Source: an uncultured Methanosarcinales archaeon
GTDB lineage: Archaea > Nanobdellota > Nanobdellia > Woesearchaeales > CAZPJY01
NCBI GenBank assembly: GCA_964587045.1
Contig: CAZPJY010000004.1
Span: forward strand, 699 to 64,698
Reading direction: 5' to 3'
DNA length: 64,000 nucleotides
The translations under genes were made by a program, and so were the position numbers. Below, piece after piece: positions 8,473 to 51,447 of the stretch (the first letter of the stretch is position 1; each line of letters starts with the position of its first letter). The notes under the pieces are model-generated. The model ran no database searches and was not told where the DNA came from. It saw only the letters and a list, made by a program, of their open reading frames with translations.

Positions 8473-8503
8473 GCTTTGCACAAATATTCGAAAATTAATA
8501 TAC

Positions 8504-9466: not shown

Positions 9467-9544
9467 TTAATTTATAATGTGTTTATATTATAAAAATTTT
9501 ACTTAAGAATAATAAAATAATGAAGAAAGTATTAATTATATGTT

Positions 9545-10273: not shown

Positions 10274-10294
10274 AACAACCTGTTCCAATAAAAA

Positions 10295-10355
10295 AACTCC
10301 ACTGCGAGAAGCGGCTTCTAGAGTAGGGATTTTGGCTAAATTTTAAGATAAAGCG
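10295..10355 (+). repeat. Direct repeat copy 2 (about 60 bp)
   Basis: aaactccactgcgagaagcggcttctagagtagggattttggctaaattttaagataaagcg. It carries an out-of-context copy of the PAS gene C-terminal codons (…CEKRLLE*). Confidence 0.85.
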
Positions 10356-19499: not shown

Positions 19500-19536
19500 A
19501 AAATTTTATATAGGCAGCGACCATTGGGTTCAGTGG

Positions 19537-21272: not shown

Positions 21273-22066
21273 TGAAGCCTAAAGTGGGAATATTCGGTGT
21301 GACCTCATGCATGGGGTGCATGCTCACCGTGCTTTTCGACGAGCACCTGCTCAAGATAGTCGAGCTGATAGACCTCAGGGCTTGGCACCTGGCGAAGGAG
21401 AAGAACGATCCGGGCCCATTCGACATCGTGATATGCGAAGGGACCATTGTCAACAAGGAGGACCTGGAATACGTAAAGAAGCTGAGGGAGAAGGCCGGGT
21501 TCCTCATCTCGCTCGGAGCGTGCGCTGTCCATGGCAACATGCCTGCCATGAAGAACTTGATGAGCCGCTACGAGGTCGAGCACTCAGTATATGACAGGAA
21601 GATCGACTCACATCCCATCAATCCGGCGCCGCTCTCCAAGCATGTCGATGTCGATTACGAGATTCCCGGCTGCCCTCCTGCCAAGGACGAGATAAGGAGC
21701 GTACTAAAGGACCTGCTCCTGGGCAGGAAGCCCCACAGGATCGAGCGGCCCGTGTGCTTCGAGTGCCGCTTAAGGGAGAACAGGTGCCTGCTCAACGACG
21801 GAATCCCTTGCATGGGACCACTGACCCAGGCCGGATGCCATGCCCTCTGCCCATCGGTGAACCACCCCTGCACAGGATGCAGGGGGCCAATCGGAGACTC
21901 AAACTACGCCTCGGAATTCTCCAAGCTACTGGAGTTAGGCTACGACAAGGATTTCATCATGAAGAAGATGAGCAAGTACGCGGCGCCTGACGTCAAGGAG
22001 AAGCTGACGAAAGTCAGGATGGGCGAGTCGGAGCGCGTGAGACGAACTGTGAGGAAGCTCAGATGA
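21272..22066 (+). CDS. hydD: [NiFe] hydrogenase small (delta) subunit
   Basis: N-terminus GIFGVTSCMGCM...; cysteine ligands GCPP, CFEC and CTGCRG. The start overlaps the hydG stop (TGATG). Confidence 0.8.
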   Translation: MKPKVGIFGVTSCMGCMLTVLFDEHLLKIVELIDLRAWHLAKEKNDPGPFDIVICEGTIVNKEDLEYVKKLREKAGFLISLGACAVHGNMPAMKNLMSRYEVEHSVYDRKIDSHPINPAPLSKHVDVDYEIPGCPPAKDEIRSVLKDLLLGRKPHRIERPVCFECRLRENRCLLNDGIPCMGPLTQAGCHALCPSVNHPCTGCRGPIGDSNYASEFSKLLELGYDKDFIMKKMSKYAAPDVKEKLTKVRMGESERVRRTVRKLR

Positions 22067-25756: not shown

Positions 25757-26285
25757 GGTACCAATGGCCCACAAGGATATCGAATGCAAGCACGAGAAGA
25801 GCCAGCACCGCCCGGACATGAAGTACCAAGAGATTCCAATAGGCGGAATCATAGAGGAGGCTGGCAACTCGATATGCTATCCCACAGGGGACTGGCGAAC
25901 ATTCATTCCTGTCCACATACCTGAGAAGTGCACCGATTGCGTCATCTGCTGGTTCAACTGCCCTGACTCTTCCATCGTGCCGAGGGATGGCGACTTCGAC
26001 AGGTTCCTTTACACCCACTGCAAGGGATGCGGCATCTGCGAGGCAGTATGCCCGACCAAGGCTATCAAGCTACTGACTGAAAAGGAGTTCAAGGAGCAGC
26101 TCCCTGAGAAGACCAAATGCTATTCCTGCGGAAAGGAGATAAATGTCAAGGAGTTCAAGGACGATCAGATGTTTGTCATCTACGTGACCGAGGGCGAGAA
26201 TCTCGCGCTGAAGTTCTTCTGCTGCAGGGAATGCTATGACAAGAAGCATGCGGAGATCCGCGAAGCGAGGAGGGCTGGAAAGTGA
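25749..26285 (+). CDS. porD: Pyruvate:ferredoxin oxidoreductase delta subunit (2x[4Fe-4S]) with an unusual 70-aa C-terminal Cys-rich extension
   Basis: CTDCVICWFNCP and CKGCGICEAVCP, followed by an extra ...CYSCGKE...CCRECYD tail. Confidence 0.75.
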   Translation: MGEVPMAHKDIECKHEKSQHRPDMKYQEIPIGGIIEEAGNSICYPTGDWRTFIPVHIPEKCTDCVICWFNCPDSSIVPRDGDFDRFLYTHCKGCGICEAVCPTKAIKLLTEKEFKEQLPEKTKCYSCGKEINVKEFKDDQMFVIYVTEGENLALKFFCCRECYDKKHAEIREARRAGK

Positions 26286-27463
26286 GCACCAGACGAGCTT
26301 TGACCGGGGCTGAGGCATCAGCAGAGGCGATGAAACAGATCAACCCGGATGTCGTCGCAGCTTACCCAATCACGCCTCAGACTCCCATCATGCACGCGTT
26401 CTCCCAGTTCGTCGCCGACGGCTCTGTGGACACGGAGCTGATAACTGTGGAGAGCGAGCATTCCGCAATGAGTGCGTGCGTGGGAGCATCGGCAGCCGGA
26501 GGCAGGGCGATGACCGCAACAGCTGCTAACGGACTCGCACTCATGATCGAGATAGTCTACATCGCAGCTTCCAACAGGCTGCCGATAGTGATGAACATTG
26601 TCAACAGGGCGCTGTCAGGTCCTATCAACATCCACTGCGACCACTCGGATTCCATGGCATGCCGGGACTCAGGCTGGCTACAGATGTATTCTGAAAACGG
26701 GCAGGAAGCATATGAGAACACCATCATGGCCACAAGGATTGCCGAACACCCTGACGTGCTCCTTCCAGTAATGGTCTGCCAGGACGGATTCATAACGAGC
26801 CACGCCGTCGAGAACGTCGACGTCCTCGATGACAAGCAGGTGAAAGACTTTGTCGGAGAGCACAAGGGGCATCACCCCCTGCTCGACGTTGACCACCCAG
26901 TATCCTCCGGGCCATTGGACCTGTTTGATTACTATTTTGAGCACAAGCAGCAGCAGCTCGACGCAATGGAGCGGTCTGTCAAGGTCATTCACGATGTGTT
27001 TGCTGAGTTCGGGAAGGTCACTGGCAAGAAGTACGAGTTCTTCGAGGAGTACTTCACAAAAGACGCCGAGATTATCATTGTTGCCCTGTCTTCAAGCGCA
27101 GGGACTATCAAAGCAGTAGTCGACGAGCTCCGCGCTCAAGGCAAGAAGGTGGGACTGGTTAAGCCCAGGGTTTTCCGACCCTTCGTCAACCAGTATATTG
27201 TAGACATCCTCAAGAACGCGAAGGCTGTGGCAGTGCTGGACAGGTCTGCATCTTTTGGCGCGACAGGCGGTCCCCTGTTCCTTGAGACGAGAAGCGCGTT
27301 CCATGACGAGCCGAAGAAGCCAAAGATAGTGAACTATATCTACGGTCTGGGCGGCCGCGAACTAGACCTAGTCCAGATACATAAGGTGTACGAAGATCTA
27401 TCAAAGATTGCCCAAACCGGCAAATTCGACCATCTGGTGCAGAGCTTGGGGGTGCGAAGATGA
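26282..27463 (+). CDS. porA: Pyruvate:ferredoxin oxidoreductase alpha subunit
   Basis: LTGAEASAEAMKQINPDVVAAYPITPQTPI N-terminus typical of PorA/VorA. Confidence 0.85.
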   Translation: MSTRRALTGAEASAEAMKQINPDVVAAYPITPQTPIMHAFSQFVADGSVDTELITVESEHSAMSACVGASAAGGRAMTATAANGLALMIEIVYIAASNRLPIVMNIVNRALSGPINIHCDHSDSMACRDSGWLQMYSENGQEAYENTIMATRIAEHPDVLLPVMVCQDGFITSHAVENVDVLDDKQVKDFVGEHKGHHPLLDVDHPVSSGPLDLFDYYFEHKQQQLDAMERSVKVIHDVFAEFGKVTGKKYEFFEEYFTKDAEIIIVALSSSAGTIKAVVDELRAQGKKVGLVKPRVFRPFVNQYIVDILKNAKAVAVLDRSASFGATGGPLFLETRSAFHDEPKKPKIVNYIYGLGGRELDLVQIHKVYEDLSKIAQTGKFDHLVQSLGVRR

Positions 27464-28392
27464 CCAACCTAAAGGAGTTCTCCAAGCGGCCTGAGCGCCT
27501 AGCACCAGGACATCGGCTCTGCCCGGGATGCGGCCTTTCCATAATCACCAGAGCGATCCTAAAGGCAACCGAGGACCCTGTCGTCGTGACCAACGCGACA
27601 GGCTGCCTCGAGGTCTCCACCACAATTTATCCTTTCAGCTCATGGCGCGTCCCATGGATGCACAACGCTTTCGAGAATGCCGCAGCGACCCTTTCAGGCA
27701 TCGAGAAGGCCTATGTCGCCCTGAAGAAGAAGGGCAAGATCAACCGACCGGTCAAGTTCCTGGCCTTCGGAGGTGACGGTGGCACTTACGACATCGGCCT
27801 CCAGTCGCTGTCAGGAATGCTCGAGCGCGGTCATGACACTGTATATGTGTGCGTGGACAACGAGGGCTACATGAACACAGGCATCCAGAGGTCCAGCTCG
27901 ACGCCTTACGGCGCCTGGACAAAGACCAGCCCTGTCGGGGCAGCTCACCAGGGCAAAGAGCAGTTCAGGAAGGACCTGACCGAGATATGCGCCGCCCACC
28001 ATATACCTTACATCGCGCAGGCATCAATCCATAACTTTATGGATCTTATAAGGAAGGCTGAGACCGCCTTCAACACGCCAGGGCCTGCCTTCATCAACGT
28101 CCTCAGCCCGTGCATACCCGGCTGGAGGACCATGCCCCAGGACACGGTCAGCCTGGCCAAGACTGCAGTCCTGACCAACTTCTGGCCACTCTACGAGGTG
28201 GTCAACGACAAATGGGTTCTCAATTTCGATCCCGGCGACAAGAAGCTTCCCATAGAGGAGTGGCTCAAACCCCAGAGGCGCTTCAGGCACCTCTTCCGTG
28301 AGGAGAACAAGCACATCATCGGGGAGCTGCAGGCCGAGATAGACCGCAGGTTCGAGCTTCTCAAGCGCAAAGCCGCAATTTCCAAGGATTAG
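27460..28392 (+). CDS. porB: Pyruvate:ferredoxin oxidoreductase beta subunit (TPP-binding)
   Basis: CPGCG...GCLEV...AFGGDGGTYDIG is the TPP-binding GDG motif. Confidence 0.85.
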   Translation: MTNLKEFSKRPERLAPGHRLCPGCGLSIITRAILKATEDPVVVTNATGCLEVSTTIYPFSSWRVPWMHNAFENAAATLSGIEKAYVALKKKGKINRPVKFLAFGGDGGTYDIGLQSLSGMLERGHDTVYVCVDNEGYMNTGIQRSSSTPYGAWTKTSPVGAAHQGKEQFRKDLTEICAAHHIPYIAQASIHNFMDLIRKAETAFNTPGPAFINVLSPCIPGWRTMPQDTVSLAKTAVLTNFWPLYEVVNDKWVLNFDPGDKKLPIEEWLKPQRRFRHLFREENKHIIGELQAEIDRRFELLKRKAAISKD

Positions 28393-29074: not shown

Positions 29075-29470
29075 ATGACAATGACTGAAGAGAAGAAAAA
29101 CAATCTTGCTAACTACGTCATGACATCGTTTTTCAGCGCACTCGTTGGAGCAGCGCTGGCCAGCGGGTACTTTTACTTGAACCAGAGAAGCGGCTCAGAC
29201 CTGGAGATCACCATCGAAAATCCGATAGTGCAGATAAAGGACCAGGGCAAGGTAATCAAAGGAAAAGCCCCCCTGAGCGAGAGCAGAAACATCCTCGATT
29301 TATTCACCGGGCACAGGGCTGACAAGTGGATCAAGTTCGAGGACGAAGGTTACATAATCTACTGGGATTACAACAACGACGGGAAATACGACAGGTACAA
29401 GTCCGTCTACAAGCAGGGGTCCATCGAAGAGAAATTCAAGGAAATCCAGACTGACAGCACCGGACGCTAG
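29075..29470 (+). CDS. Small membrane-anchored protein, paralog 3 of 3
   Basis: TM helix followed by KGKAPLSESR...NNDGKYDRY. The start is set at the ATG at 29075, just after the paralog 2 stop. Confidence 0.4.
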   Translation: MTMTEEKKNNLANYVMTSFFSALVGAALASGYFYLNQRSGSDLEITIENPIVQIKDQGKVIKGKAPLSESRNILDLFTGHRADKWIKFEDEGYIIYWDYNNDGKYDRYKSVYKQGSIEEKFKEIQTDSTGR

Positions 29471-30639
29471 CGGACCAGCGTGACAGTCTCCTTGGCTATC
29501 TCAAGCTCCTCGTTCGTCGGGATGACGAACACCTTAACTTTCGAGCCCTTGGCAGATATGACTCTGGCGTTGCGCCTGTTGGCATTGGCGTCTAACCTCA
29601 CTCCCATATGCTTAAACCTTGACAGGACCTTAGCTCTGGTACCCCACTCATTCTCGCCTATGCCTCCAGTGAATACGATGCAGTCCAGGCCTTCAAGAAC
29701 GGTCGCATAGGCACCGATGAAGAACGCTATCCTGTAGGCGAGCATGTCAAGAGCGAGCTCTGCCCTATCATTTCCCGATTTGGCTGCCTGGACCAGCTCC
29801 CGGACATCCGAGCTGATGCCAGAGATGCCCTTGAGGCCTGATTTCTTGTTGAGATAATTGGACAGCTCGTCCGGTTTGAAGTGTTTCTTCTTAATGAGGT
29901 ATATGGGAATCTCAGGGTCCAGCTCTCCACTTCGAGTGCCCATGATCAGCCCGTCCAGCGGTGTGAATCCCATGGTCGTGTCAACGCTCTTCCCGTCCTT
30001 TATCGCCGTGATTGACGAGCCGTTCCCGAGATGGCAGGTGATCATCTCGTGGCTCTTGCGCTTGAGCATCTTGGCCGCCTCGCGGCTGACGTATTTGTGG
30101 GAGGTACCATGGAAGCCGTATTTCCTTATCTTGTATTTCTGGTAGAGCTCGAGGGGTATGCCATAAAGGTAGGCCTCCTCCGGGATGGTCTGGTGGAATG
30201 CTGTGTCGAAGACGGCCACCTGCGGCACCTTGGGCATCACCTTCATGCACGCTTTGATACCTGCAAGGTTTGGGGGGTTGTGGAGGGGTGCAAGCTCGAA
30301 GAGCTCCTTGATGCGCTTGATGACCTCACCGTCGATTAGCGTCGGTCCATGATAGTATTCCCCGCCGTGCACGACTCGGTGGCCAACAGCCTTGATGTCA
30401 TCGATGTCCTCAAGCACCTTTGATCTTATCAGAAATTCCAGGGCGAAATGAACCGCCTCTGCGTGGTCCTTTATCAGCTCCTTCTCCTCTACCTTCTTGT
30501 TGCCGTACGATAACTTCACCGTGCACCGGTCCAGTCCGATGCCATCGACATGCCCCTTGAAGAGGAGAGCCCCTTCCGGCATCTCCAGAAGCTGGTATTT
30601 CAAGGAGCTTGATCCTGAGTTCAGGACGAGGACCTTCAC
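29467..30639 (-). CDS. ackA: Acetate kinase
   Basis: (M)KVLVLNSGSSSLKYQL N-terminus and other acetokinase motifs. The probable GTG start at 30637-30639 overlaps the pta TGA (GTGA). The listed ORF extends to an ATG at 30705. Confidence 0.8.
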   Translation of the reverse strand: MKVLVLNSGSSSLKYQLLEMPEGALLFKGHVDGIGLDRCTVKLSYGNKKVEEKELIKDHAEAVHFALEFLIRSKVLEDIDDIKAVGHRVVHGGEYYHGPTLIDGEVIKRIKELFELAPLHNPPNLAGIKACMKVMPKVPQVAVFDTAFHQTIPEEAYLYGIPLELYQKYKIRKYGFHGTSHKYVSREAAKMLKRKSHEMITCHLGNGSSITAIKDGKSVDTTMGFTPLDGLIMGTRSGELDPEIPIYLIKKKHFKPDELSNYLNKKSGLKGISGISSDVRELVQAAKSGNDRAELALDMLAYRIAFFIGAYATVLEGLDCIVFTGGIGENEWGTRAKVLSRFKHMGVRLDANANRRNARVISAKGSKVKVFVIPTNEELEIAKETVTLVR

Positions 30640-31616
30640 CTTCCCACCGCCTGAGCCTGAATCACTGTTATGGCCGTTATCCCGTAAACGTCGTCGACTG
30701 AGCACCCTCGGGAGAGGTCGTTGACAGGCCTTCTGATGCCCTGGATTATGGGACCAAGGGAGGTGACCTGGCCGATTCTTTGTGTTATCTTGTAGGCAAT
30801 GTTGCCAGCGTCCAGGTTGGGGAATATGAAGACGTTTGCCTTCCCCCCAATTGGGGAATCAGGGCATTTCTTCTGGGCCACTTTCTCGACGTATGCTGCA
30901 TCGAACTGCAGCTCCCCGTCAAGCAGTAGGTCCGGGGCGCGCTCCTTTGCAATCCTGGTCGCCTCGACGACCTTGTCGACCATGGGGTGCTTGGCGCTTC
31001 CGTGCGTCGAGAAGGAAAGCATCGCAACCCTGGGTTCGATGCCGAAAAACTTGGCCGATTCAGCGGTTGCGAGAGCGATGTCGGCGAGCTCCTCAGGATT
31101 GGGATCAATGACAAACCCGCAATCTGCATAGAACATCAGTCCCTGATCGGATATCTCGAAGAAGAAGCTCGATGCAAGCTTCCTCCCCTCAGCGGTCTTG
31201 AGTATCTGAAGCGCAGGCCTAAGCGTGTGGGCTGTGGGATGGGAAGCACCGGATATCAAGCCGTCAGCCTCACCCAGATGGACCATCATGGTCCCCCAAT
31301 AGATTGGCTCTGCAACCATCTTCCTTGCGTCGTCGATTAGTGCTAGCTTGCCCTTGCGGAGCTCCATGAACTCCTTGGCAAAGCTCTCCACGTCGCCTTT
31401 GGCTGGATCCACTATCTGGATGTCACCGAGGTCGAGATTGAGCGAGGCTGCCTTGGCCCTCGTAGTCTCTTCAGGACCCACGAGTATTGGGACAGCTATG
31501 CCATCATTCTTCACGCGCAGGGCTGCCTTGAGAATGCGTTCGTCCTCAGTTTCTGGGAATACTATGCGCTTTGGCTCCTTGCGAGCTTTCTCGATTAGAT
31601 TGGACAGGAAATCCAT
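30636..31616 (-). CDS. pta: Phosphotransacetylase (short, about 326 aa form)
   Basis: N-terminus MDFLSNLIEKARKEPKRIVFPETEDERILKAA and conserved Pta core. Translationally coupled to ackA. Confidence 0.8.
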   Translation of the reverse strand: MDFLSNLIEKARKEPKRIVFPETEDERILKAALRVKNDGIAVPILVGPEETTRAKAASLNLDLGDIQIVDPAKGDVESFAKEFMELRKGKLALIDDARKMVAEPIYWGTMMVHLGEADGLISGASHPTAHTLRPALQILKTAEGRKLASSFFFEISDQGLMFYADCGFVIDPNPEELADIALATAESAKFFGIEPRVAMLSFSTHGSAKHPMVDKVVEATRIAKERAPDLLLDGELQFDAAYVEKVAQKKCPDSPIGGKANVFIFPNLDAGNIAYKITQRIGQVTSLGPIIQGIRRPVNDLSRGCSVDDVYGITAITVIQAQAVGR

Positions 31617-32494: not shown

Positions 32495-34918
32495 GTGGAC
32501 TTATTGGAAGATAAGGATAATACATTCATTCTCTGGTTTGATCAACTCAATATCCAAGATATCAAGTATGTTGGAGGGAAGAACGCGTCCCTTGGGGAGA
32601 TGTACAGGAACCTGTCCTCACTCGGTGTGAATGTCCCCAATGGATTCGCGATCACAGCCAGGGCCTACAGGTATTTCCTGGAGCACAACAAGATACCCGA
32701 CAAGATCCACGAGATACTGGCAGACCTTGACACCGGCAACATGAACAACCTGTCTGAGAAAGGTTACAAGATAAGGCATATGATCATCAACGCAGAATTC
32801 CCCGAAGACCTAAAGGAGGCGATAATCGGAGCGTACAAGGCGTTATGCAACTCCTATCAGACCGAACTCGTGGACGTTGCGGTCAGGAGCTCAGCGACAG
32901 CGGAGGATCTCCCCGACGCCTCTTTTGCTGGGCAGCAGGAGACCTATCTCAACATAAGGGGCTCGTACAACATCGTCCATTCAGTAAAGAAATGCTTCGC
33001 ATCCCTATTCACAAATAGGGCCATATCCTACAGGGTGGACAAGAAATTCGACCACTTCTCAGTCGCGCTGTCTGTCGGGATACAGAAGATGGTGAGATCA
33101 GACAAGGCCTGCTCAGGAGTGATGTTCTCCCTCGACACAGAATCTGGGTTCAGGGATGTGGTCCTCATCAATGGCATCTACGGCCTCGGCGAGAACATCG
33201 TCCAGGGAGCGGTTAACCCTGACGAGTTCCTGGTCTTCAAGCCTACGTTGAAGAACGGATTCAGGCCGATAATCGAGAAGAAGCTGGGCGGAAAGCGCAT
33301 CAAGATGGTCTACAGCCAGGAAGGTGTGGAGTCAGTAAAAAACGTGCCGGTCGACATCAATGACAGAAAGAGTTACGTGCTGAACGATGACGAAATCCTC
33401 ACGCTCGCCAGGTGGGCGATGGTTATCGAAGAACATTACACCAAGGTCAGGGGGAAGGATACCCCCATGGATATGGAGTGGGCGAAGGATGGTGAGCTCA
33501 ACAAGCTGTTCATAGTGCAGGCCAGACCAGAGACTGTCCACTCTCAGAGGGACGCGACCAAGCTCACTGAATATGTCCTCAAGGGCAAGGGGACAGTTCT
33601 GGTCAGAGGCACATCTGTCGGGAACAAGATCGGAAAAGGCAAGGTCGCCATAATCAAGGATGTGCACAATATTAACCAATTCAAGAAGGGAGAGGTCCTC
33701 GTGACAGAGATGACCGACCCGGACTGGGAACCTATTATGAAGATTGCCGGCGCGATAGTGACCAACCGCGGAGGGAGGACCAGCCATGCCGCCATCATCT
33801 CCCGCGAGCTTGGGATACCCTGCGTTGTGGGCACGCAGACAGGCACCGAGATTCTCAAGAGCGGCCAGGAGGTCACTGTCGACTGCTCGAAGGGCGAGAA
33901 CGGTCATGTATATGAAGGGCTCATCGATTTCGAGTTGCTCCAGCAGGACCTCTCAGAAATACCCAAACCCAAGACAGCGATCATGATGAATGTGGGCAAC
34001 CCAGAGCAGGCCTTCCACCATAGCTTCATACCCAACTCTGGGGTGGGACTGGCAAGGGAAGAGTTTGTGATCAATTCGTACATCAAAATCCACCCCTTGG
34101 CTCTTATCAAGTTCGACGAGCTCACCAATGAGGAGGTAAGGTCGCAGATTCTTGAGCTGACTTCGGGCTATGAGGACAAGAAGCAGTACTATGTCGACAA
34201 GCTCTCCTATGGTATCAGCATCATCGCATCCGCCTTCTATCCAAAGGACGTAATCGTTCGCCTGAGCGATTTCAAGAGCAACGAGTACGCGAATCTGATA
34301 GGTGGGAAGCTCTTCGAGCCGACTGAGGACAATCCGATGATCGGGTGGAGGGGCGCATCCAGGTACTATGCTGAAAAGTACAAGGAGGCCTTCGCACTGG
34401 AGTGCAAGGCGCTCCAGAAGGTGAGGGATGAGATGGGCCTCACCAATGTCAAGATCATGGTGCCTTTCTGCCGCACGGTGGAGGAGGGCAGGAAGGTCCT
34501 GCACGAAATGGAGAAGAACGGACTCAAGCAGGGAGAGAATAACCTTCAGGTCTATGTCATGTGCGAGATCCCCTCCAATGTCATTCTCGCCGACCAGTTC
34601 TGCGATATCTTTGACGGATTCTCAATCGGCACAAACGACCTCACCCAGCTCACCCTCGGACTGGATAGGGACTCTGAGCTTGTGTCCCACATCTACGATG
34701 AGAGGAACGACGCTGTCAAACGTCTGGTGTCGATGGTCATCAAGACAGCCCGTGAGAGGCACCGTAAGATTGGCATATGCGGCCAGGCACCCAGTGATTT
34801 CCCCGAGTTCGCTGAGTTCCTTGTAGAGCAGGGAATAGATTCGATTAGCCTGAATCCTGATACTGTGATAAGGACCACGATGCGGATCGCCGAGAAAGAG
34901 CAGCAGTTGGGCCGTTAG
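32495..34918 (+). CDS. ppsA: Phosphoenolpyruvate synthase (pyruvate, water dikinase)
   Basis: N-terminal ILWFDQLNIQDIKYVGGKNASLGEM, a central phosphohistidine domain (GGRTSHAAIISRELGIPCVVG) and a C-terminal PEP-utilising TIM-barrel domain. 807 aa. GTG start. Confidence 0.85.
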   Translation: MDLLEDKDNTFILWFDQLNIQDIKYVGGKNASLGEMYRNLSSLGVNVPNGFAITARAYRYFLEHNKIPDKIHEILADLDTGNMNNLSEKGYKIRHMIINAEFPEDLKEAIIGAYKALCNSYQTELVDVAVRSSATAEDLPDASFAGQQETYLNIRGSYNIVHSVKKCFASLFTNRAISYRVDKKFDHFSVALSVGIQKMVRSDKACSGVMFSLDTESGFRDVVLINGIYGLGENIVQGAVNPDEFLVFKPTLKNGFRPIIEKKLGGKRIKMVYSQEGVESVKNVPVDINDRKSYVLNDDEILTLARWAMVIEEHYTKVRGKDTPMDMEWAKDGELNKLFIVQARPETVHSQRDATKLTEYVLKGKGTVLVRGTSVGNKIGKGKVAIIKDVHNINQFKKGEVLVTEMTDPDWEPIMKIAGAIVTNRGGRTSHAAIISRELGIPCVVGTQTGTEILKSGQEVTVDCSKGENGHVYEGLIDFELLQQDLSEIPKPKTAIMMNVGNPEQAFHHSFIPNSGVGLAREEFVINSYIKIHPLALIKFDELTNEEVRSQILELTSGYEDKKQYYVDKLSYGISIIASAFYPKDVIVRLSDFKSNEYANLIGGKLFEPTEDNPMIGWRGASRYYAEKYKEAFALECKALQKVRDEMGLTNVKIMVPFCRTVEEGRKVLHEMEKNGLKQGENNLQVYVMCEIPSNVILADQFCDIFDGFSIGTNDLTQLTLGLDRDSELVSHIYDERNDAVKRLVSMVIKTARERHRKIGICGQAPSDFPEFAEFLVEQGIDSISLNPDTVIRTTMRIAEKEQQLGR

Positions 34919-36874: not shown

Positions 36875-37797
36875 AAATGGTCTTAGTAAACAGCAAAGAC
36901 ATTCTCAACAACGCAAGAGAGAACCACTATGCCGTCGCGGCTTTCAACGTGAACAACATGGAAGCTGTCCAGGCTGTCGTCCAGGCGGCCGTTGAGGAGA
37001 AGGCTCCTGTAATCATCCAATGCACCGAAGGGGCTATCAAGTACGCTGGCCTTGACATGCTCAGGGCCATGGTAAACGCAGCGGCAGGAAAACCCGAACA
37101 GCGCTTCGTCCTGCACCTAGATCATGGCAAAGATATGGAAATTATCAAATCCTGCATAGACGGCGGATTCACTTCGGTGATGATTGACGCCTCATCAGAG
37201 GATTTTGAGGCTAATGTCGCCAGAACCAAGGAAGTCGTCGACCTAGCACATCCCAAGGGCCTAACAGTTGAAGCAGAGCTCGGACAGCTGAAAGGTGTAG
37301 AGGACAACGTCGCTTCGGAAAACCAGGTATTCACGGATCCCGAAAAGGCCAAAGAGTTCGTGGAAAGGACTGGCTGCGACTCCCTCGCAATAGCCATAGG
37401 GACCAGCCACGGAGCGCACAAGTTCAAGGGCGAGCCCCATCTGGATATGGAGCGGCTATCCAGAATTAGGGAGGTGGTGAAAATCCCTCTCGTATTGCAC
37501 GGCGCATCACGTGTACCTCCCGAGACCGTCTCGGAAGCGAACCATTATGGCGGCCAGATCGAAAACGCACATGGAGTGCCTGACGAAATGCTGGCTGAGG
37601 CGGTTCGCAGGGGGATTTGCAAGGTGAACACGGACACCGACTTGAGGCTTTCCCTCACTGCAGGCCTCCGGAAGGCTCTCGCCGAGAACCCTTCAAACTT
37701 CGACCCGCGCAAGGAGCTCGGACCAGCCAGGGAGGCGATGAAGGAAGAAGCGAAGCATCGCATAAGAGTAGTCGGAAGCTCTGGCAGATTTGCATAA
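36871..37797 (+). CDS. fba: Class II (metal-dependent) fructose/tagatose-bisphosphate aldolase
   Basis: AVAAFNVNNME...HLDHG...EAELG...HG motifs of class II FBA. Confidence 0.8.
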   Translation: MKMVLVNSKDILNNARENHYAVAAFNVNNMEAVQAVVQAAVEEKAPVIIQCTEGAIKYAGLDMLRAMVNAAAGKPEQRFVLHLDHGKDMEIIKSCIDGGFTSVMIDASSEDFEANVARTKEVVDLAHPKGLTVEAELGQLKGVEDNVASENQVFTDPEKAKEFVERTGCDSLAIAIGTSHGAHKFKGEPHLDMERLSRIREVVKIPLVLHGASRVPPETVSEANHYGGQIENAHGVPDEMLAEAVRRGICKVNTDTDLRLSLTAGLRKALAENPSNFDPRKELGPAREAMKEEAKHRIRVVGSSGRFA

Positions 37798-37835
37798 TCT
37801 TTATATACTCTTTTCTTATCTTTCAGGGAGAAAAT

Positions 37836-39410
37836 ATGAAACATATAATTTGGCCTTCGGAACTGGCAGACCAGGATGTAGGTTACAAGGCTAAGGGCCT
37901 GGCTGAGCTGCAGCAGCAGCGAATACAGGTAGCTCCTTTCTTCGTCGTGACCGGAAGCGTTTTCGAGGAAATGGCAGGAGAGGTGATGCCGCGAATCAAG
38001 AACCTGCTCACCACAATCAGCGACCAAGAGTCCTTGGAAGCGAACGCGACCATCATACAGAGGCTGGTGGCCGGTCTCGAGCTGCCAGCTGACCTCAAGG
38101 AAGAGCTAATTGAGGCCTATGAGGTCCTGGAGATAGACTTCGAGAACGTCCATATATCTGATATGGTGAAGGAACTCGAGGATCCCATCGTGGCGGTGAG
38201 GGTCAGCACCTCGGACTCAGGACTCTCATCAATGCTCTCCAAGCGCATCCAGGGCCAGCTGGTAATCAAAGGGACCGATGCCCTCCGTAAAGCCCTGCAC
38301 GGGGTGTGGGTTGCCCAGTTCTTCCCCGAAATCATCAATTACAAGAGGTCCTCCAACCTGGATCCGCTCGAGCCGATATCGATAATGGTCCAGAAGGTCA
38401 TCAAGTCCAATAGGTCTTGCAGGACCGAAACCATGTCGCAGGAGCAGATATTGGTCGAGGCCATGCCCGGATCCAGCTGGGGAGTCAAGGATGAGGAGAT
38501 CGGGAAGGACAGGTTCATAGTCGCCTCTAAGGGTCTTGAGCTCAAGGAGTCTACGCCAGGAAGGCATACTAAGAGGTACCATTTCGATCCTGGATCTCTC
38601 AGCTTCCTAAAGCAGGAAGGGATATCCCTCAAGACCATCAACGACAAGGAAGCAGTTGAGGCAGCCCGCGTCACCAAGAACGCCTCTGCAATCCTCAACT
38701 CCCCGGTCAGCCTGACGATTGACATCCAGGAGGACCTGATGTTTGTCACAGACTGCACCCCGCTGGAATCCTACCAGATGCCCCTGAAGGCTTTTACTGA
38801 GGAGAGGGCAGAGGACCTGATCCATCTCGAAGAGGAACCGAAGGAGGAGGAGAAGGATCTCAAACAGGGGGATGCTGAAGAATTCGCCCCAATCGAGCAT
38901 GAGGAAGATGCTGAAAAATTTGTCCCTATCGGACATGAGGAAGATGCCGCTGATGAAGCACCGGCCCCCGATGAGGACTTCTTAGAGGTGTCGACCGACT
39001 CTGATGAGGAGCCTGAGGAGTTCATAGAGATTCAAGGAACCAAGCCGGAAGAGACCCCTAAAGACGATGAGTACGTAGAACTCCAGGAGCCCCCTGATGA
39101 AGAACAGGCAGAAAATGATGAAAGCTCAATCATAACGGATTTCATGGGAAACCAGAAGGCCATGCAAGAGCTCTCCAAGGCAATACGCACCTTTGAGCAT
39201 TCGATCGTGTCGGCACTCAAAGAAACAAGCGGAAGCGAAGAGAACCAATTGGAAGACCTTCTGGATGAGGTAGATATTGAACCTGAGCTCAAGACGCGAG
39301 CCAGGGCTGTCAAACGGCTCGCTGACCGCTACAGGGGTGGTGAGACCCTGACTCTTCCTGAAATGGAGTTCGCCCTGAAGGCCGTTAGGGAGATTCTCGA
39401 CGGGCTTTGA
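37836..39410 (+). CDS. Paralog of the PEP-synthase/PPDK N-terminal nucleotide-binding domain, fused to a long acidic, partly repetitive C-terminal tail
   Basis: GYKAKGLAELQQQRIQVAPFFVVTG...VAVRVSTSDSGLSS aligns with ppsA GGKNASLGEM...NGFAITA...VAVRSSATAEDLP but with substitutions in the conserved block. The tail is D/E-rich, with EDAEEFAPIEHE / EDAEKFVPIGHE repeats. The ATG at 37836 is preceded by gggag. Confidence 0.5.
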   Translation: MKHIIWPSELADQDVGYKAKGLAELQQQRIQVAPFFVVTGSVFEEMAGEVMPRIKNLLTTISDQESLEANATIIQRLVAGLELPADLKEELIEAYEVLEIDFENVHISDMVKELEDPIVAVRVSTSDSGLSSMLSKRIQGQLVIKGTDALRKALHGVWVAQFFPEIINYKRSSNLDPLEPISIMVQKVIKSNRSCRTETMSQEQILVEAMPGSSWGVKDEEIGKDRFIVASKGLELKESTPGRHTKRYHFDPGSLSFLKQEGISLKTINDKEAVEAARVTKNASAILNSPVSLTIDIQEDLMFVTDCTPLESYQMPLKAFTEERAEDLIHLEEEPKEEEKDLKQGDAEEFAPIEHEEDAEKFVPIGHEEDAADEAPAPDEDFLEVSTDSDEEPEEFIEIQGTKPEETPKDDEYVELQEPPDEEQAENDESSIITDFMGNQKAMQELSKAIRTFEHSIVSALKETSGSEENQLEDLLDEVDIEPELKTRARAVKRLADRYRGGETLTLPEMEFALKAVREILDGL

Positions 39411-44046: not shown

Positions 44047-44697
44047 ATGAGAATCTTCGCAGATACAGCTGATGTCGCGTACATAAGAAAATTGGCTTCC
44101 ATGGGCGCAATCGATGGCGTCACGACCAACCCTTCGCTGCTGGCCAAGGAGGGCAGGGACCCTTCAAAGGTCATGAAGGACATACTGAAGGCTGTGGAAG
44201 GACCTGTTAGCCTTGAGGTCACAGCTTCGGACACCAAAGGAATGGTCGCTGAGGCGGAGAGGCTGGCAGCTCTTGGCAAGAACGCCGTCATCAAGATACC
44301 GATGACACCTGAGGGCATGCTTGCTGTCAAGGAGCTGTCCGGAAAGGGCATCAGGACAAATGTGACTTTAGTCTTTTCCCTCGCGCAGGCGATTCTCGCA
44401 GCCAAGGCAGGCGCGACCTATGTCTCCCCTTTCGTCGGCCGCCTGGATGACGCCGGCCAGGACGGAATGCAGCTGGTGGAGGAAATTCTGACAGCCTTCG
44501 ACAACTACGGGTTCGGCACAGAGGTTATCGTGGCTAGCATTAGGGGAATGCAACATGTCAAGGAAGCCGCGCTGCTCGGGGCGGATGTCGCCACGATTCC
44601 GCCTGCGATCATCGAACAGATGTTCCGGCATCCCCTCACCGAAGTGGGGATAAAGAAGTTCTTGGATGACTGGAATAAACTAAAGAGTAAGAAGTAG
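44047..44697 (+). CDS. tal: Transaldolase (short Fsa/TalC-type)
   Basis: [10 protein letters not shown]...TTNPSLL...KIP...Schiff-base lysine context. About 216 aa. TATA-like boxes lie upstream. Confidence 0.8.
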
Positions 44698-45087
44698 GAT
44701 TGCTATCACGGCGAAACCTATCCCCACCACTTTGAGGAGCGTTAGCTTTTCTGCAAGGAACAGAACCGCGACGAGAGCAGTGACTGCAAAGCTCAATCCC
44801 CGCAGGGTGGCTGCTATGCTGGCCTTCCCCATCTGAATCGCCGCGATGAACGATATGAAGGAAAGTCCGGCGATTATGCCCGCGATTCCGGCATATTTCA
44901 AGCTCTCAAGGTTATACTTCTTGTTCCTTGACAGCAGCCAGAAGATTAGGATAACAGCTGTCATGAACACAGATGCGATCAGGGTAGTAGTCACAGGATC
45001 CGTGCTCCTACCTGCAAGCTTGTAGAGGATTGCAGTAATCCCGTAACCGGCCATTGCAAGGAGCGCAAGCAACAGGTAAGGTTCCAT
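44680..45087 (-). CDS. EamA/DMT-superfamily small membrane transporter (4 TM)
   Basis: Four hydrophobic helices with an EamA-like pattern. Confidence 0.45.
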
Positions 45088-45233: not shown

Positions 45234-45938
45234 ATGAAAAAATCCAAATTATGGTTTCTAATGGTTCCCCTACTTGCCATTGGGCTTGGAAAAGAGGCTC
45301 CGGCCCAGGACCTCACTGCGATAATCGAGAACACGGTAATCAATAAAAACATCTTCGTCGGGATGAACTTTGGGAACAAGCCGATGGAACAGCTCTACAC
45401 AACTTTCGGCAACAAGCACTTGGCTTTCGGTACCTGGTGCAGTTACAGCCTCAAAGACATGAAGATGCAGGAAGTCGATTATTACTTATCCTCTCCGATC
45501 AAGGTCAACAAACACCTAACCCTGGAGCCTGGCGCAGGACACTATACTTTCCCTAACACCGAAGACGAGGACGCCCAGGAGCTGTACCTGGAGGCGAGGA
45601 CCGTCGGCCTGCCATTCGACTACTACCTACTGCTCGGGAAAGCCTTCGGACCGGTCAGCAACTACGGACATATTGCCATGGTAACTGCAAAAAAGCCATT
45701 CGACATAAGCAAACAGGTTAAGCTCATCCCAAAGATAGAGTTCATCTACAATGATCACTATTTCACAACGGCTTCGGGATTTTCTCATGTGGGGACCAAC
45801 CTGGCGTTATCGTTCAATCTAATGAAAAAGATGAGCGTATCTGCCACAGGAACTTACCAGTTCCACGTAAGCGATGCTTTTGAAGGAATCACTCTCGACG
45901 AGAGCTATTTCACGGTTAGTGTGACGCATACTTTCTAG
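45234..45938 (+). CDS. Secreted protein with signal peptide and beta-barrel (OMP-like) character
   Basis: N-terminal signal peptide MKKSKLWFLMVPLLAIGLG, amphipathic alternating-residue strands, and a C-terminal ...SVTHTF ending in Phe. An AT-rich 150-bp region lies upstream. Confidence 0.4.
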   Translation: MKKSKLWFLMVPLLAIGLGKEAPAQDLTAIIENTVINKNIFVGMNFGNKPMEQLYTTFGNKHLAFGTWCSYSLKDMKMQEVDYYLSSPIKVNKHLTLEPGAGHYTFPNTEDEDAQELYLEARTVGLPFDYYLLLGKAFGPVSNYGHIAMVTAKKPFDISKQVKLIPKIEFIYNDHYFTTASGFSHVGTNLALSFNLMKKMSVSATGTYQFHVSDAFEGITLDESYFTVSVTHTF

Positions 45939-46612
45939 AAGCCGAAGATTGACCTGATTCTCTTCTTGGCCGCCAAGCGGCTTAGGCTCCGCTCGAGCTC
46001 AGCCGCATTTGGGTAGGCCTTCTCATCCTTCCGGAAGGCGGCCGAATGGTACCTGCTTCTCCTCCCGGTGCTTGAGAACTTGTGCTTTTTGTGGAGCATC
46101 TCATGGTACATCACGTAATCGAGCAGTTCCTGCTCTCCTTCCAGTATTGCCGACATGGTTATTGTGTCGGTGCCGTAATCATAGCTGCCGAACTTGTGGA
46201 AACTTGCAGTACCCCAGACCAGGTTCGGAGCCTCCATCTGCCCATAGAGGAACTGATCGTTGACGCGCTCGAATGACTCCAGAAGCACCGGGTCCTGCGC
46301 GTCCTTTGGGATGGCGATGTGAACATTCTTGAGGAAGATGTGGTAGAGGTCCATCGCTGTGGTCTTCTTCCCGCCTTTGAACAGCCTGACCATCAGCGAC
46401 TGGATGAGCCCCTTGACGATGTCGCGCTGGACTCCTTTCCATTCCCTGCTCAGACGCAGCTCAAGCCTTTTTGTGAAGCCTTTCTGAACCATCCTGATGT
46501 TTGCGTTGTAGCTTGAGAACTTGCCGGAGTACTTCAGCGACGTCTCGAAGCCGAAGCCCTTCTCCGGGTATAGTTCTGAGTAAGCTTCCTCAATCAGGTC
46601 CATTGCGATCAC
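45935..46612 (-). CDS. DUF45/YgjP-like metal-dependent hydrolase
   Basis: C-terminal YVMYHEMLHKKHKFSSTGRRSRYHSAAF has an HExxH zinc-binding motif placed as in the YgjP family. Confidence 0.5.
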   Translation of the reverse strand: MIAMDLIEEAYSELYPEKGFGFETSLKYSGKFSSYNANIRMVQKGFTKRLELRLSREWKGVQRDIVKGLIQSLMVRLFKGGKKTTAMDLYHIFLKNVHIAIPKDAQDPVLLESFERVNDQFLYGQMEAPNLVWGTASFHKFGSYDYGTDTITMSAILEGEQELLDYVMYHEMLHKKHKFSSTGRRSRYHSAAFRKDEKAYPNAAELERSLSRLAAKKRIRSIFGF

Positions 46613-48641: not shown

Positions 48642-49130
48642 TCACGAGAGGTATTTTGTGAGGGTCGCATCGACCTTGGACGCCCGCGTATCAAGCCATC
48701 CCTGGGTTTCCCAAGTGGCATCCATCCCAACAAGCGCTTCACAAGCAGCATAGACTGCAATACCCGCACCGATACCGAGAGCCAGAGGAGATATCATCGT
48801 GCCCATGAGCACGCCGAGTCCGACACAAACCGCCCGTCTGAAATCGACAATCCTCTTAAGGTAAGGCGTGGTCTTGTAGTGAATTTTCACATCAACCACC
48901 TTTTCCAGCTCTTCTGCCTTCTGGTTGAAATCCGGACGGTGCTTTGCTAATATTGGAAAGTACTTGGCACAGAAACTGGTTTCCTTGTACAGCTTTCTAC
49001 CCTCATAATAATATGACTTTCCCTTGTCGAAATCTTCGTTAGACAGAATATCGAGGACAAGCGCGTCCAGCTTGTTCCCGCCTCTTGGATATATGGTCTC
49101 AGCAGCCTTTATCTTGTTGTGTATTCCCAT
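48642..49130 (-). CDS. Hypothetical protein with a C-terminal hydrophobic/Gly-rich segment
   Basis: ORF only. Confidence 0.3.
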   Translation of the reverse strand: MGIHNKIKAAETIYPRGGNKLDALVLDILSNEDFDKGKSYYYEGRKLYKETSFCAKYFPILAKHRPDFNQKAEELEKVVDVKIHYKTTPYLKRIVDFRRAVCVGLGVLMGTMISPLALGIGAGIAVYAACEALVGMDATWETQGWLDTRASKVDATLTKYLS

Positions 49131-49180
49131 CGGTCATGCACCCCAAACAGGCACAGAATCAAGTATATTTAAACCTTACA

Positions 49181-49240
49181 GTTCGTGTTGATGGCGGCAA
49201 TCCCTCCCATGTCGCGGAGCTGCACTCCCTCACGCTGAGG
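49181..49240. repeat. Diverged duplicate of the aRF1 3' coding end (pseudo-fragment), copy A
   Basis: Its reverse complement encodes ...REGVQLRDMGGIAAIN..., matching the aRF1 C-terminus. It shares the 20-nt core cccatgtcgcggagctgcac with 49902-49921. Confidence 0.7.
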
Positions 49241-49252
49241 AGGTGAGAATAT

Positions 49253-49834
49253 TTAATCCTTTGCCTTCATGAGCGCGAGGACCTTCTCGAAAGCCTCGGC
49301 CTGCGCGACGGCATCCTCGAGGGCGTTGTGGGTGAGGCCATTGGGGAGGAACTCGGATATGGTAGCGTACTCGTCCCCGGTCACGCCCCAGTAGACAGAA
49401 TTCATATCGATGCCACGCCAGCCGAAGGGGTTCTCGCCCATGAAGTGGCGGAAGTAGTAGTCAACGAACTTCCAGTCGAAGCAGGCGGGGTGGGCGACGA
49501 AGACCGGGTTCGGGTCGATGACGTAGAGCCAGTCCCTAAAGTCCTCCATCGCCTTGCGCGGAGGCGTACCATTGATGTCGAGCTCCAGGAGGGCCTCGAG
49601 CGGCTCGAACTCCTTCCTTCCAGGATGGAGCTCCTCCTTGCCCTTCAGGCATTCGAGGCCCAGGCATGCCACCCGCATGGCCGGCTCCTCGTACTCGATA
49701 CCGAGGCCTTGGATCTCCCTGTAGAACCGCGTCTCCGTGTCACCGACGACGCATGCCCCCAAGGAGAGCATGGAATAGGTCGGTGGGTAAGGGCCCGATA
49801 CCTCGATGTTGACAGCGATGTAGGTGTTCTCCAT
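49253..49834 (-). CDS. DnaQ-like (DEDDh) 3'-5' exonuclease-domain protein
   Basis: Exo II-like FVAHPACFDWKFV and Exo III-like HNALEDAVAQAEAF. The first motif reads VNIEVSG, with N where the Exo I Asp is expected. Confidence 0.55.
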   Translation of the reverse strand: MENTYIAVNIEVSGPYPPTYSMLSLGACVVGDTETRFYREIQGLGIEYEEPAMRVACLGLECLKGKEELHPGRKEFEPLEALLELDINGTPPRKAMEDFRDWLYVIDPNPVFVAHPACFDWKFVDYYFRHFMGENPFGWRGIDMNSVYWGVTGDEYATISEFLPNGLTHNALEDAVAQAEAFEKVLALMKAKD

Positions 49835-49867
49835 GCGAGGTGTGGATAAGAACTTTCTAATAAAACT

Positions 49868-50962
49868 TTAGATTTCGTACCTGTTAATCGACGCGATGCC
49901 ACCCATGTCGCGGAGCTGCACCCCCTCGCGGGTCTCGGTCGATATGATCTCCACCTGGGACCCCATCTCTTCAGCCTTCTTTTCCAGCTCCTCAATCTTC
50001 TCGTCAGAAAAGGTCTCAGAGACGAGCAAAATCTCGACGGCACCGATCTCAAGGGCGTGCCTTACAGCGGCCTCCCCATAGCTAACCATCTTCTCCTTGG
50101 TGGACAGGAGCTGGAAGAACCTTCCCACCAGCTTCTTTTCTTCCATGACCTCCTCGTTGGCCAGGACGTCCTCGCTCTTCTCGAGCAGCTCCTGCAGCCC
50201 GAAATCCCCTGTGTACGACAGGTCCTTAATGGCGATGATCTTCTGCTTGACCTGATCCGTGATGAAGCCGCCCTCGACGAAGTCGTACTTGGTCGGCCCG
50301 GGACCGCCGACTATTATGCCCTTGACCTCCTTGTTGTCCAGGAACTCCTCCTTCATCATGTCAGCGATCTTCTTGTAGAAGTCCTTCGCAGCCCCTTCCC
50401 TCAGCCGCTCGAATCGCTGGGCAGACTGGCCGCCTGCGCGCGTCTTTCCAGGCACGTTGGAGCTGGCCTTCGATATGGGTACGATTGCCTTCCCCTTGAG
50501 CAGAGCGACATTCCCGTCCCTCCTGTCCATGACCACCAGCCCGTAGACCACGTCGTCCTCGCACATATCCCTGAGCAGGTCCAAGACAAACGTCTTGTCG
50601 CAGCGGTATATTCTCGTCTTGAGCGGAACCGGAGGCTCGACGCTCCACACCTGGAAGTCGAACTGGCCCTCCCGTTCTGAGACGTTGCCTGAGAACACGG
50701 CAAGACCGTGCTCAGGCGTCCTGGGGAAGAGACGGAGGTGCTGTATCATCTTCTCAAGCGCGTCAATCACATTCTTCCTGGTCGAGCTGGATTTGATGTT
50801 GGTCGCTGTGCCCTGCTCCTGCGAGAGGTGGTTGATAATCTTGTTTATGTCATAGCCTGCCGGCACATATACTGAGACGAGCTCGGTATGCCTACCCCTA
50901 TATGTTTCCAATTCCTTTATCAATTTCTGGAGCTTAAACTTCTGATGTGCTGAAATTGCCAT
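49868..50962 (-). CDS. prf1: Peptide chain release factor aRF1
   Basis: TATNIKS (NIKS) and GGQ (RAGGQSAQRF) motifs. 364 aa. Confidence 0.9.
   Translation of the reverse strand: MAISAHQKFKLQKLIKELETYRGRHTELVSVYVPAGYDINKIINHLSQEQGTATNIKSSSTRKNVIDALEKMIQHLRLFPRTPEHGLAVFSGNVSEREGQFDFQVWSVEPPVPLKTRIYRCDKTFVLDLLRDMCEDDVVYGLVVMDRRDGNVALLKGKAIVPISKASSNVPGKTRAGGQSAQRFERLREGAAKDFYKKIADMMKEEFLDNKEVKGIIVGGPGPTKYDFVEGGFITDQVKQKIIAIKDLSYTGDFGLQELLEKSEDVLANEEVMEEKKLVGRFFQLLSTKEKMVSYGEAAVRHALEIGAVEILLVSETFSDEKIEELEKKAEEMGSQVEIISTETREGVQLRDMGGIASINRYEI
49882..49935. repeat. aRF1 3' coding end, copy B of the diverged duplication
   Basis: See the 49181-49240 feature. Encodes ...EGVQLRDMGGIASINRYEI*. Confidence 0.7.
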
Positions 50963-50988: not shown

Positions 50989-51447
50989 TTAACTTATCCC
51001 AAAATAGTCTTTCAGGTAAAGAATGCTCTCATCGACAGTGTCGACCACCTTGCCGTATCGCTGCAGCGCATGTCTTCCATATTCCTTGTTCATTCCCGCA
51101 GGCCAGATCAGAACGATCTCGTCAAGAGGCCCTTCTCCCACGCCTCCATGCATGTGGTAAAACATTCCTATTTCCTCGCCAAGTTCAGGCATCGAGAACG
51201 ATGGGCAGTATCCAAGGAGTACCCAAGAATTTTCTAGGCCCCAAATGTTATCTGAATGGAAATTGGCTTGCTGCTGTGCTTTCCTAGATTCCCAGTGGAA
51301 AAAACGTAATTCAGGGAGTGAGTCGATTATCCAATCCGCATAGAAATTATAGTGCTTCTGCCTGGGTCCACCCAGGAAAACGTCAAACTCGTAATCTTTT
51401 GCCATAAAGACATCTCCCAAACACCTTTCTTTTATGCCTTTCGGCAA
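50989..51447 (-). CDS. Hypothetical protein, possibly nucleoside 2-deoxyribosyltransferase-like (Rossmann-like)
   Basis: Only weak resemblance (DVFLGGP...W). Low confidence. Confidence 0.25.
   Translation of the reverse strand: MPKGIKERCLGDVFMAKDYEFDVFLGGPRQKHYNFYADWIIDSLPELRFFHWESRKAQQQANFHSDNIWGLENSWVLLGYCPSFSMPELGEEIGMFYHMHGGVGEGPLDEIVLIWPAGMNKEYGRHALQRYGKVVDTVDESILYLKDYFGIS

Follow-up and report, generated by a model that had tools for sequence, protein, structure and literature searches.

The 64,000-nt stretch of DNA analysed here over its full length (contig CAZPJY010000004.1, positions 699–64,698; hereafter the window) is chromosomal core sequence from a Woesearchaeota (DPANN) archaeon in which the gene for the translation termination factor aRF1 is bracketed at its 3′ end by a repeat of its own last codons. 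The intact aRF1 gene is followed by a single small cargo gene encoding a DEDDh-type 3′–5′ exonuclease and, beyond it, by an orphan copy of the aRF1 C-terminal codons, an architecture that a preliminary description of this DNA had already recognized. We read the locus, with about an even chance of being correct, as the scar of an integration by single crossover (Campbell type), in which a small foreign DNA entered the 3′ end of aRF1. Most informative among the new results is that the two copies of the gene end resemble each other at the peptide level only, a likeness that on codon evidence traces the orphan to the end of an aRF1 from another lineage.

A repeat search of the window places the two copies at 49181–49234 (copy A) and 49877–49930 (copy B), forming a direct repeat of 54 nt that is 80% identical, runs in the same orientation and is offset by 696 nt. 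Within the repeat lies an exact 20-nt core, CCCATGTCGCGGAGCTGCAC on the plus strand, at 49206–49225 in copy A and 49902–49921 in copy B, which represents the candidate crossover segment. When the whole window is compared with itself by BLAST, the aRF1 pair emerges as one of two top matches, with E = 1.2e-4 for its 26-nt centre alone; the other (8414–8472 / 10297–10355, E = 1.6e-18) belongs to a second bracket described below, and apart from these two pairs no match has E < 0.09. The repeat with its perfect 20-nt core, as first described, is thereby borne out by both searches, and it is not a product of chance.

On the minus strand the order of features is a 152-aa ORFan, aRF1, a 33-nt spacer, the 193-aa exonuclease gene, an 18-nt linker, the orphan aRF1-like segment and a 162-aa ORFan. 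Copy B lies within the functional aRF1 gene (49868–50962, minus strand, 364 aa), whose 3′ end is the insertion site, and covers codons R345–Y362 in an attL-like position. Copy A, attR-like and on the same strand, is an orphan fragment of an aRF1 3′ end that encodes REGVQLRDMGGIAAIN followed by TN. Translation across this junction gives IFSPPQ-REGVQLRDMGGIAAIN-TNCKV and a stop, starting directly after the exonuclease stop codon and in the same frame: the linker between that stop and copy A (49235–49252, minus strand) contributes IFSPPQ, and a tail of CKV and TAA (49169–49180, minus strand) closes the frame, the TAA falling inside the TATA-like box GGTTTAAATATAC of the 162-aa gene. The linker matches the corresponding aRF1 codons at 6 of 18 nt, which is chance level, and shows no detectable relation to aRF1. 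Copy A has no start codons of its own other than internal GTG and ATG codons giving 13–18 aa, in agreement with the preliminary description, which had placed the orphan outside any ORF and had named, as the sole gene between the copies, a 193-aa exonuclease with an N-I-E Exo I motif. The 54-nt pair has the form of attL and attR sites, that is, direct repeats one of which overlaps the 3′ end of the target. Both repeats are present without a recombinase, as in a cis-mobilizable element (CIME), and the integrase expected within a site-specifically integrated element is missing, the insert holding the exonuclease alone.

The coding origin of the two copies is seen directly in their codons. The resident aRF1 matches Pfam eRF1_1 (5e-16), eRF1_2 (1e-39) and eRF1_3 (2e-21), the last over residues 272–364 and so to its final residue. 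Its C-terminus, ...TREGVQLRDMGGIASINRYEI and a stop, keeps the RYE motif as in its homologues, and the protein is intact with a functional-looking end. Set against this resident end (REGVQLRDMGGIASINRYEI and a stop), the copy A peptide REGVQLRDMGGIAAIN equals aRF1 residues 345–360 at 15 of 16 positions, and a tblastn search with aRF1 finds copy A as the sole other aRF1-like segment in the window. The 16 shared codons differ at nine bases; eight of these differences fall at third positions, and one gives a Ser/Ala change. Random placement would rarely produce such a third-position bias (P = 0.00025). Moreover, 8 of the 16 codons are identical, compared with 7.4 expected if the same peptide were coded independently with the codon usage of this genome; therefore the synonymous sites are saturated, and the 80% DNA identity is wholly explained by the shared peptide.

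Judged by this codon pattern, copies A and B must come from the 3′ termini of two aRF1 genes that evolved apart under protein-level selection, and both must have passed most of their separate history within working aRF1 genes. Because the synonymous sites are saturated while the peptide is kept, target-site duplication and recent in-place duplication are excluded, and two sources of aRF1 are needed. The earlier term "diverged duplicate" is misleading in this respect, since differences that are nearly all synonymous and saturated do not describe a local duplication followed by drift. The same saturation means that, although the two copies can be aligned as the preliminary description had proposed, their divergence cannot be dated.

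Two residues indicate where the second source is to be sought. Gly354 (49901–49903) and Asn360 (49883–49885) are common to both copies, whereas nearly all of the 120 Woesearchaeota aRF1s closest to the resident protein, with the consensus ...D[ILM]GK[IV]AAILRYE..., have Lys and Leu at positions 354 and 360. The resident protein reads ...GGIASINRYE against the Woesearchaeota consensus ...GKIAAILRYE, the Leu of an (G/A)ILRY-like motif being replaced by Asn. Gly354 recurs in just 2 others of the 120 closest aRF1s and Asn360 in none of the 60 C-terminal tails listed, so the second source would be a fairly close relative that is absent from the collections searched. According to the title of a study cited in PMC2909394, the (G/A)ILRY-like motif, of which RY is part, is implicated in the binding of eRF3 by eukaryotic eRF1.

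Comparison with relatives shows that the exonuclease does not belong to the ancestral arrangement. The closest aRF1 homologues are Woesearchaeota/Nanoarchaeota proteins of at most 74% identity, and nine relative loci, seven of them distinct, could be compared (aRF1, 63–74% identical). None of the nine has the exonuclease after aRF1, which means that the gene is an insertion relative to other Woesearchaeota and disposes of the possibility, raised in the preliminary description, that it is ancestral at this position. Instead, a SprT-like gene directly follows aRF1 in four loci (L001, L005, L007 and L008) and probably in L009 and L010 as well, where an unannotated 213-aa gene occupies this place. 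In L004 a 315-aa membrane protein, CorA-like by eye, separates aRF1 from SprT; the next gene after aRF1 is HIT-like in L002 and methyltransferase-like in L006. Across Woesearchaeota, the DNA that follows aRF1 is thus a variable zone. L008 also has aIF5A and an M50 peptidase in synteny with the window, and no bracket was found after aRF1 in L004, L008 or L009.

In the window, the SprT-like gene (45935–46612) lies 3.2 kb from aRF1, and the interval contains the exonuclease, copy A, the 162-aa ORFan, an oppositely oriented PHP-domain gene and an AbrB-PhoU gene that overlaps SprT by 4 nt. Homologues of the exonuclease in other DPANN archaea occupy different, conserved neighbourhoods, for example LonB – Dph6-like – OB-fold – exonuclease – AAA_22 ATPase, and no brackets surround them. 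An apparent bracket around the OB-fold and exonuclease genes of L013, from another Woesearchaeote, and of L014, consisting of a 23-nt repeat (96% identical, spacing 1,559 nt) and a weaker 35-nt repeat, was considered and rejected as chance, because its two copies (3438–3537 and 4997–5068 in L013) are motifs native to two unrelated genes, a diphthine-ammonia-ligase-like gene and an AAA_22 ATPase, and these motifs are conserved in L015.

Under the Campbell-type reading, the incoming DNA would have carried the exonuclease gene, its own promoter and a stretch homologous to the last ~20 aRF1 codons, the latter derived from the aRF1 of a related, separately evolving Woesearchaeote. As a circular intermediate, this DNA would have recombined with the chromosome through a crossover within the 20-nt core, the sole stretch identical between the two versions. 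The resident aRF1 would have stayed intact, its C-terminal codons exchanged for those of the incoming version (copy B, attL-like), while the other version of the end, presumably that of the host, would have been displaced 696 nt downstream to become an orphan pseudo-3′-end (copy A, attR-like) beside the promoter of the next gene. The recombinase could have been a site-specific integrase acting in trans or since lost by decay, or the reaction could have been host homologous recombination; no such enzyme is encoded in the window. As it now stands, the unit resembles, by analogy, a decayed, integrase-less element that retains both att sites, and is in this sense CIME-like.

The topology agrees with such an integration: one repeat falls within the 3′-terminal part of a conserved gene that is intact, and the second follows shortly after a compact cargo. 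In addition, the identity between the copies is clustered. Six consecutive codons (VQLRDM) are identical, whereas 2 of the 3 codons to their left and 6 of the 7 to their right are changed; a run of this length has a permutation P of 0.038, and codon usage gives a probability of 0.017 for those six codons. This clustering would fit a crossover segment, with marginal support.

Several observations weigh against integration by a single crossover. Given codon usage, the significance of the core is just marginal (P about 0.02–0.04), and codon preference alone has given the GC-rich relative L004 a run of 14 nt in common with copy A at this position. Copy A reads TN where all tails examined, the 60 listed and those of the seven relative loci, have RY or RF; a simple Campbell integration should leave the canonical end of the host downstream, and the TN of copy A departs from it. 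Two adjacent replacements after displacement would be needed while the 16 preceding codons stayed almost unchanged, an outcome with a chance of about 0.03 by rough reckoning; otherwise the homology stops at Asn360. The cargo measures just 642 nt, far below any described archaeal integrated element, and the GC content at third codon positions (GC3) of the exonuclease resembles that of host core genes, giving no compositional sign of a foreign or distant donor. A Pfam scan of 56 ORFs (all 58 mapped genes except 10563–11009 and 44680–45087) detects no integrase, other recombinase or transposase in the insert or in the 64 kb. Viral contigs, queried with the 20-nt core, the repeat of the second bracket and the 242-aa cargo protein of that bracket, yield no cognate element. 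Finally, no empty site was found: the best aRF1 reaches 74% in genome, metagenome and 5.8-billion-protein searches, and the downstream gene is an ORFan.

An account that dispenses with the circle, the att site and the integrase is homology-facilitated illegitimate recombination, or in-place replacement. Linear DNA of a relative, carrying aRF1 followed by the exonuclease, would have recombined through homology within or upstream of aRF1 and been rejoined illegitimately at codon 345, leaving the last ~22 codons of the recipient as a stump. Two separately evolved, synonymously saturated aRF1 ends, the missing recombinase and the sharp left edge of copy A at codon R345 would all be accounted for, a donor among close relatives would account for the host-like codon usage of the exonuclease, and remodelling on both flanks of aRF1 is evident from the 152-aa ORFan (GC3, 0.50) that lies upstream of the gene. 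Yet the 20-nt core then becomes a coincidence (P about 0.02–0.04), the change from RY to TN is still needed in the stump, the second bracket of the same topology 40 kb away is left unexplained, and the required order of aRF1 and then exonuclease occurs in none of the nine relative loci (seven distinct). On balance, this course of events appears rather unlikely.

Alternatively, the two ends could descend from an old tandem pair of paralogous aRF1 genes, both functional and side by side for long enough that synonymous sites became saturated, of which the downstream gene was later destroyed and replaced by the exonuclease save for its last ~20 codons. The lineage-specific Gly354 and Asn360 would then be shared without an unsampled donor, and the purely synonymous divergence would be accounted for, but about 1 kb would have to be swapped precisely for a 0.6-kb gene, and the second bracket would again be unaccounted for. 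Moreover, a permissive tblastn search of the interval between aRF1 and the SprT-like gene (45.9–49.9 kb) finds no aRF1 remnant beyond copy A, and a tandem aRF1 is present in none of the relative loci; we consider a paralogous origin improbable. A weak tblastn extension into the C-terminus of the exonuclease, considered as a candidate aRF1 remnant, matches residues that belong to the exonuclease itself, whose family has the consensus FEKVL.LMK, and is attributed to chance.

An assembly artefact, in the form of a chimeric join between co-occurring strains or species, has to be weighed because the contig comes from a metagenome-assembled genome. The only other contig over the locus, L003 (100% identical over 1,551 of its 1,552 nt), covers the junction between aRF1 and the exonuclease and ends at 49579, before copy A, so that the copy A junction is covered by a single contig. 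However, the copies share just 20 exact bases, with mismatches on either side, and 20 bases are shorter than the k-mers usual in assembly. In addition, a linear chimera cannot create the succession of exonuclease stop, 18 nt and aRF1 codon 345 unless it was present in some real molecule, and an artefact is accordingly very unlikely.

Still less probable is that copy A is expressed and kept by selection, for example as an aRF1-like C-terminal extension of the exonuclease made by read-through of its TAA. Copy A does continue the exonuclease frame past the stop, with a peptide kept at 15 of 16 positions despite synonymous saturation, as selection in place would also produce. The in-frame position nevertheless has a 1 in 3 chance of arising by accident, copy A has lost the RY of the (G/A)ILRY-like motif, and 120 exonuclease homologues measure 170–230 aa, none of the 12 aligned having an aRF1-like tail. 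We know of no TAA read-through or recoding in these archaea. The weakest alternative takes the match for an accident, or for a conserved terminator or non-coding RNA with no link to the coding sequence of aRF1 (the latter foreseen in the preliminary description); it has in its favour that the match is short and is of negligible probability, given the self-BLAST value of the centre and the presence of just two such pairs in the window, a similarity that tracks the codon frame, the lack of any Rfam match at either copy even at E = 1, and folds that do not surpass those of shuffled sequence (z-scores of +0.67 and −0.58).

The search for further signs of a mobile element is likewise negative within the window. 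There are no tRNA genes, and no terminal inverted repeats at the ends of the cargo. A transposon, casposon or miniature inverted-repeat transposable element (MITE) with target-site duplication was rejected, since inverted repeats are lacking and synonymous change between the copies has reached saturation while their peptide is kept. An integron gene cassette was rejected as well: the 3′ flank gives no better fold than shuffled sequence (z, +0.67), there is no integrase, and a single gene lies beside a housekeeping gene.

The architecture has named precedents, although the preliminary description, which had recognized the same arrangement, could not name the process. In Thaumarchaeota, 14 of 68 integrated elements lie at the 3′-distal part of protein-coding genes, are flanked by attL/attR repeats and replace the end of the gene (PMC6563490). 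These elements (NitEve-E2 and 13 others) have direct repeats, one over the end of a conserved gene that is kept intact by an end and stop codon supplied by the element, and the same is seen at aRF1. The repeats in the window, 54–62 nt, fall inside the 29–69 bp reported for crenarchaeal att sites. In contrast, the Thaumarchaeota elements are multi-gene and described as recombinase-integrated, whereas the aRF1 unit comprises one 193-aa gene with no recombinase within 64 kb. It further differs from the listed cases in its DPANN host, in a target, aRF1, that is not among theirs, and in repeat arms that are alike just at the peptide level.

Integrase-less derivatives that keep both att sites form a defined bacterial class, the CIMEs (PMC5704250). 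In streptococci, CIMEs are integrative and conjugative or integrative and mobilizable elements (ICEs and IMEs) that have decayed and lost their integration and transfer genes (PMC5704250); like the aRF1 unit, they consist of a cargo without an integrase, set between att-like repeats where a housekeeping gene has its 3′ end. Unlike it, they are bacterial and derived from known ICE families, and cognate integrases act on their att sites, whereas the aRF1 unit has no known parent element or integrase. The aRF1 locus is best classed as a DPANN, aRF1-targeted, single-gene and integrase-less instance of a known insertion pattern. A bacterial element with a comparable target is SXT/R391, which integrates in prfC, the gene for release factor 3, and rebuilds the end of that gene, so that here too a translation-termination factor gene is the target and its coding end is replaced. 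SXT departs from the aRF1 case in targeting the 5′ end, in its size of about 100 kb, in having its own integrase and in being bacterial.

The cargo gene (49253–49834, minus strand) encodes a 193-aa protein that belongs by sequence to the Rv2179c/Cap18-like DEDDh 3′–5′ exonucleases. Its Pfam scores lie close to the cut-offs (PF00929, 24.3 bits against 24; PF16473, 26.8 bits against 27), while PADLOC PDLC00753 "Exonuclease" (7e-42) and PDB 7t2s "3′–5′ exonuclease" (4.5e-25) are clear matches. Similarity to the Cap18/Rv2179c-like family (PF16473, PDLC00753, 7t2s) extends over the full length, and in the alignment the cargo keeps E11, D120, H169 and D174, including the Exo II and Exo III residues. 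The DEDDh catalytic set is incomplete, however: the Exo I motif reads N-I-E, with Asp9 replaced by Asn (codon 9, AAC, 49807–49809). Of the 142 homologues found, the closest are 48–50% identical, and D-[IV]-E is present in all other homologue N-termini inspected by eye (~118), Asn in none. Replacement of the Exo I Asp inactivates other DEDDh enzymes, and because this residue is replaced in the cargo, the protein may be inactive, or altered or repurposed in function.

The cargo differs from the Cap18/Rv2179c-like family not only in its first catalytic Asp but also in lacking a defence partner nearby, and its nearest homologue is just 50% identical. No CD-NTase cyclase or effector of a cyclic-oligonucleotide-based antiphage signalling system (CBASS) is found near the gene, its neighbours being aRF1, the ORFans, the PHP-domain protein and the AbrB-PhoU protein. 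Exonuclease relatives encoded on viral contigs reach no more than 38% identity and are uninformative. The exonuclease has the highest GC3 in the window (0.84, against a window mean of 0.69). A TATA-like box, TTTTATTA on the minus strand (49858–49866), begins 3 nt past the aRF1 stop, about 30 nt ahead of the ATG of the exonuclease gene. TATA-like boxes at the same spacing (−26 to −35) precede many genes of the window, as is typical of leaderless transcripts, from which we infer that the cargo carries its own promoter and is expressed from a leaderless mRNA.

Both flanks of aRF1 are occupied by ORFans of low GC3: the 152-aa ORFan (50989–51447, minus strand; GC3, 0.50) and the 162-aa ORFan (48642–49130, minus strand; GC3, 0.55), which is the downstream neighbour and lies outside the bracket. 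The former sits between Nop56/58 and aRF1, genes that are adjacent in L001 and L005. The latter has no Pfam, PHROG or PADLOC match and finds only itself among 5.8 billion proteins.

A second bracket of the same topology lies at the 3′ end of a PAS_10 gene (8033–8443) and most likely corresponds to the other example to which the preliminary description referred. Its repeat, 8411–8472 / 10294–10355, spans 62 nt and is 92% identical. Copy 1 (8411–8472, plus strand) comprises the last 10 codons of the PAS_10 gene, its stop and 29 nt downstream, while the displaced copy 2 (10294–10355, plus strand) lies just upstream of the TATA-like box of a gene for an XRE-type helix-turn-helix protein (10396–10593). 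The cargo between them (8473–10293) consists of a double Lrp/AsnC-type regulator (8504–9466, minus strand) and a 242-aa ORF (9545–10273, plus strand). This ORF belongs to no known family, and its composition is clearly foreign (GC3 of 0.35, z = −3.6). As in the aRF1 bracket, no recombinase is present.

The likeness of the PAS_10 copies is one of DNA: the non-coding bases agree at 28 of 29 positions, and each of the three codons that differ specifies another amino acid. DNA-level similarity that includes non-coding bases, together with coding differences that are all nonsynonymous, indicates a young event, younger than the aRF1 bracket and with a different history. The preliminary description had presented two like examples in 64 kb; they are alike in topology but share no history. 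That this topology occurs twice among about 78 ORFs suggests recurrent gene gain by this route. Both could in principle be products of an undescribed, trans-acting Woesearchaeota insertion system that places small, promoter-bearing, recombinase-less cassettes into the 3′ ends of conserved genes together with peptide-preserving last codons, but to this proposal we give a low probability.

Other features of the window lie apart from the two brackets. A tandem 36-nt repeat in 2 copies (78% identical, 38866–38937) is located inside a 597-aa PPDK_N-like ORF (37617–39410). Two short, perfect or near-perfect palindromes are present: one at 6322–6345, in the TATA-rich spacer of the divergent genes 5491–6306 (minus) and 6355–6906 (plus), which may be a shared bidirectional promoter or operator, and one at 26808–26829, inside a pyruvate:ferredoxin oxidoreductase (POR) ORF (26282–27463). 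Genes of energy metabolism at 19468–23346, 26282–28392, 29467–30705 and 32495–34918 include a NiFe-hydrogenase-like cluster (Fer4, NAD-binding, Oxidored_q6 and NiFeSe_Hases), subunits of pyruvate:ferredoxin oxidoreductase, acetate kinase and PEP/pyruvate dikinase, a set that gives the impression of being unusually rich for a DPANN archaeon.

Taken alone, the aRF1 case is an ordinary outcome of known recombination mechanisms. DPANN archaea have small, rapidly changing genomes whose routes of gene acquisition are hardly known, and the locus provides a clean, base-resolved gene addition beside an undamaged essential translation gene, with a scar that can still be read and that points to a related, unsampled lineage as the source of the DNA. 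If it is true that such scars recur across Woesearchaeota, orphan gene ends recognizable at the peptide level would constitute a simple marker of gene gain where integrases and close relatives are missing.

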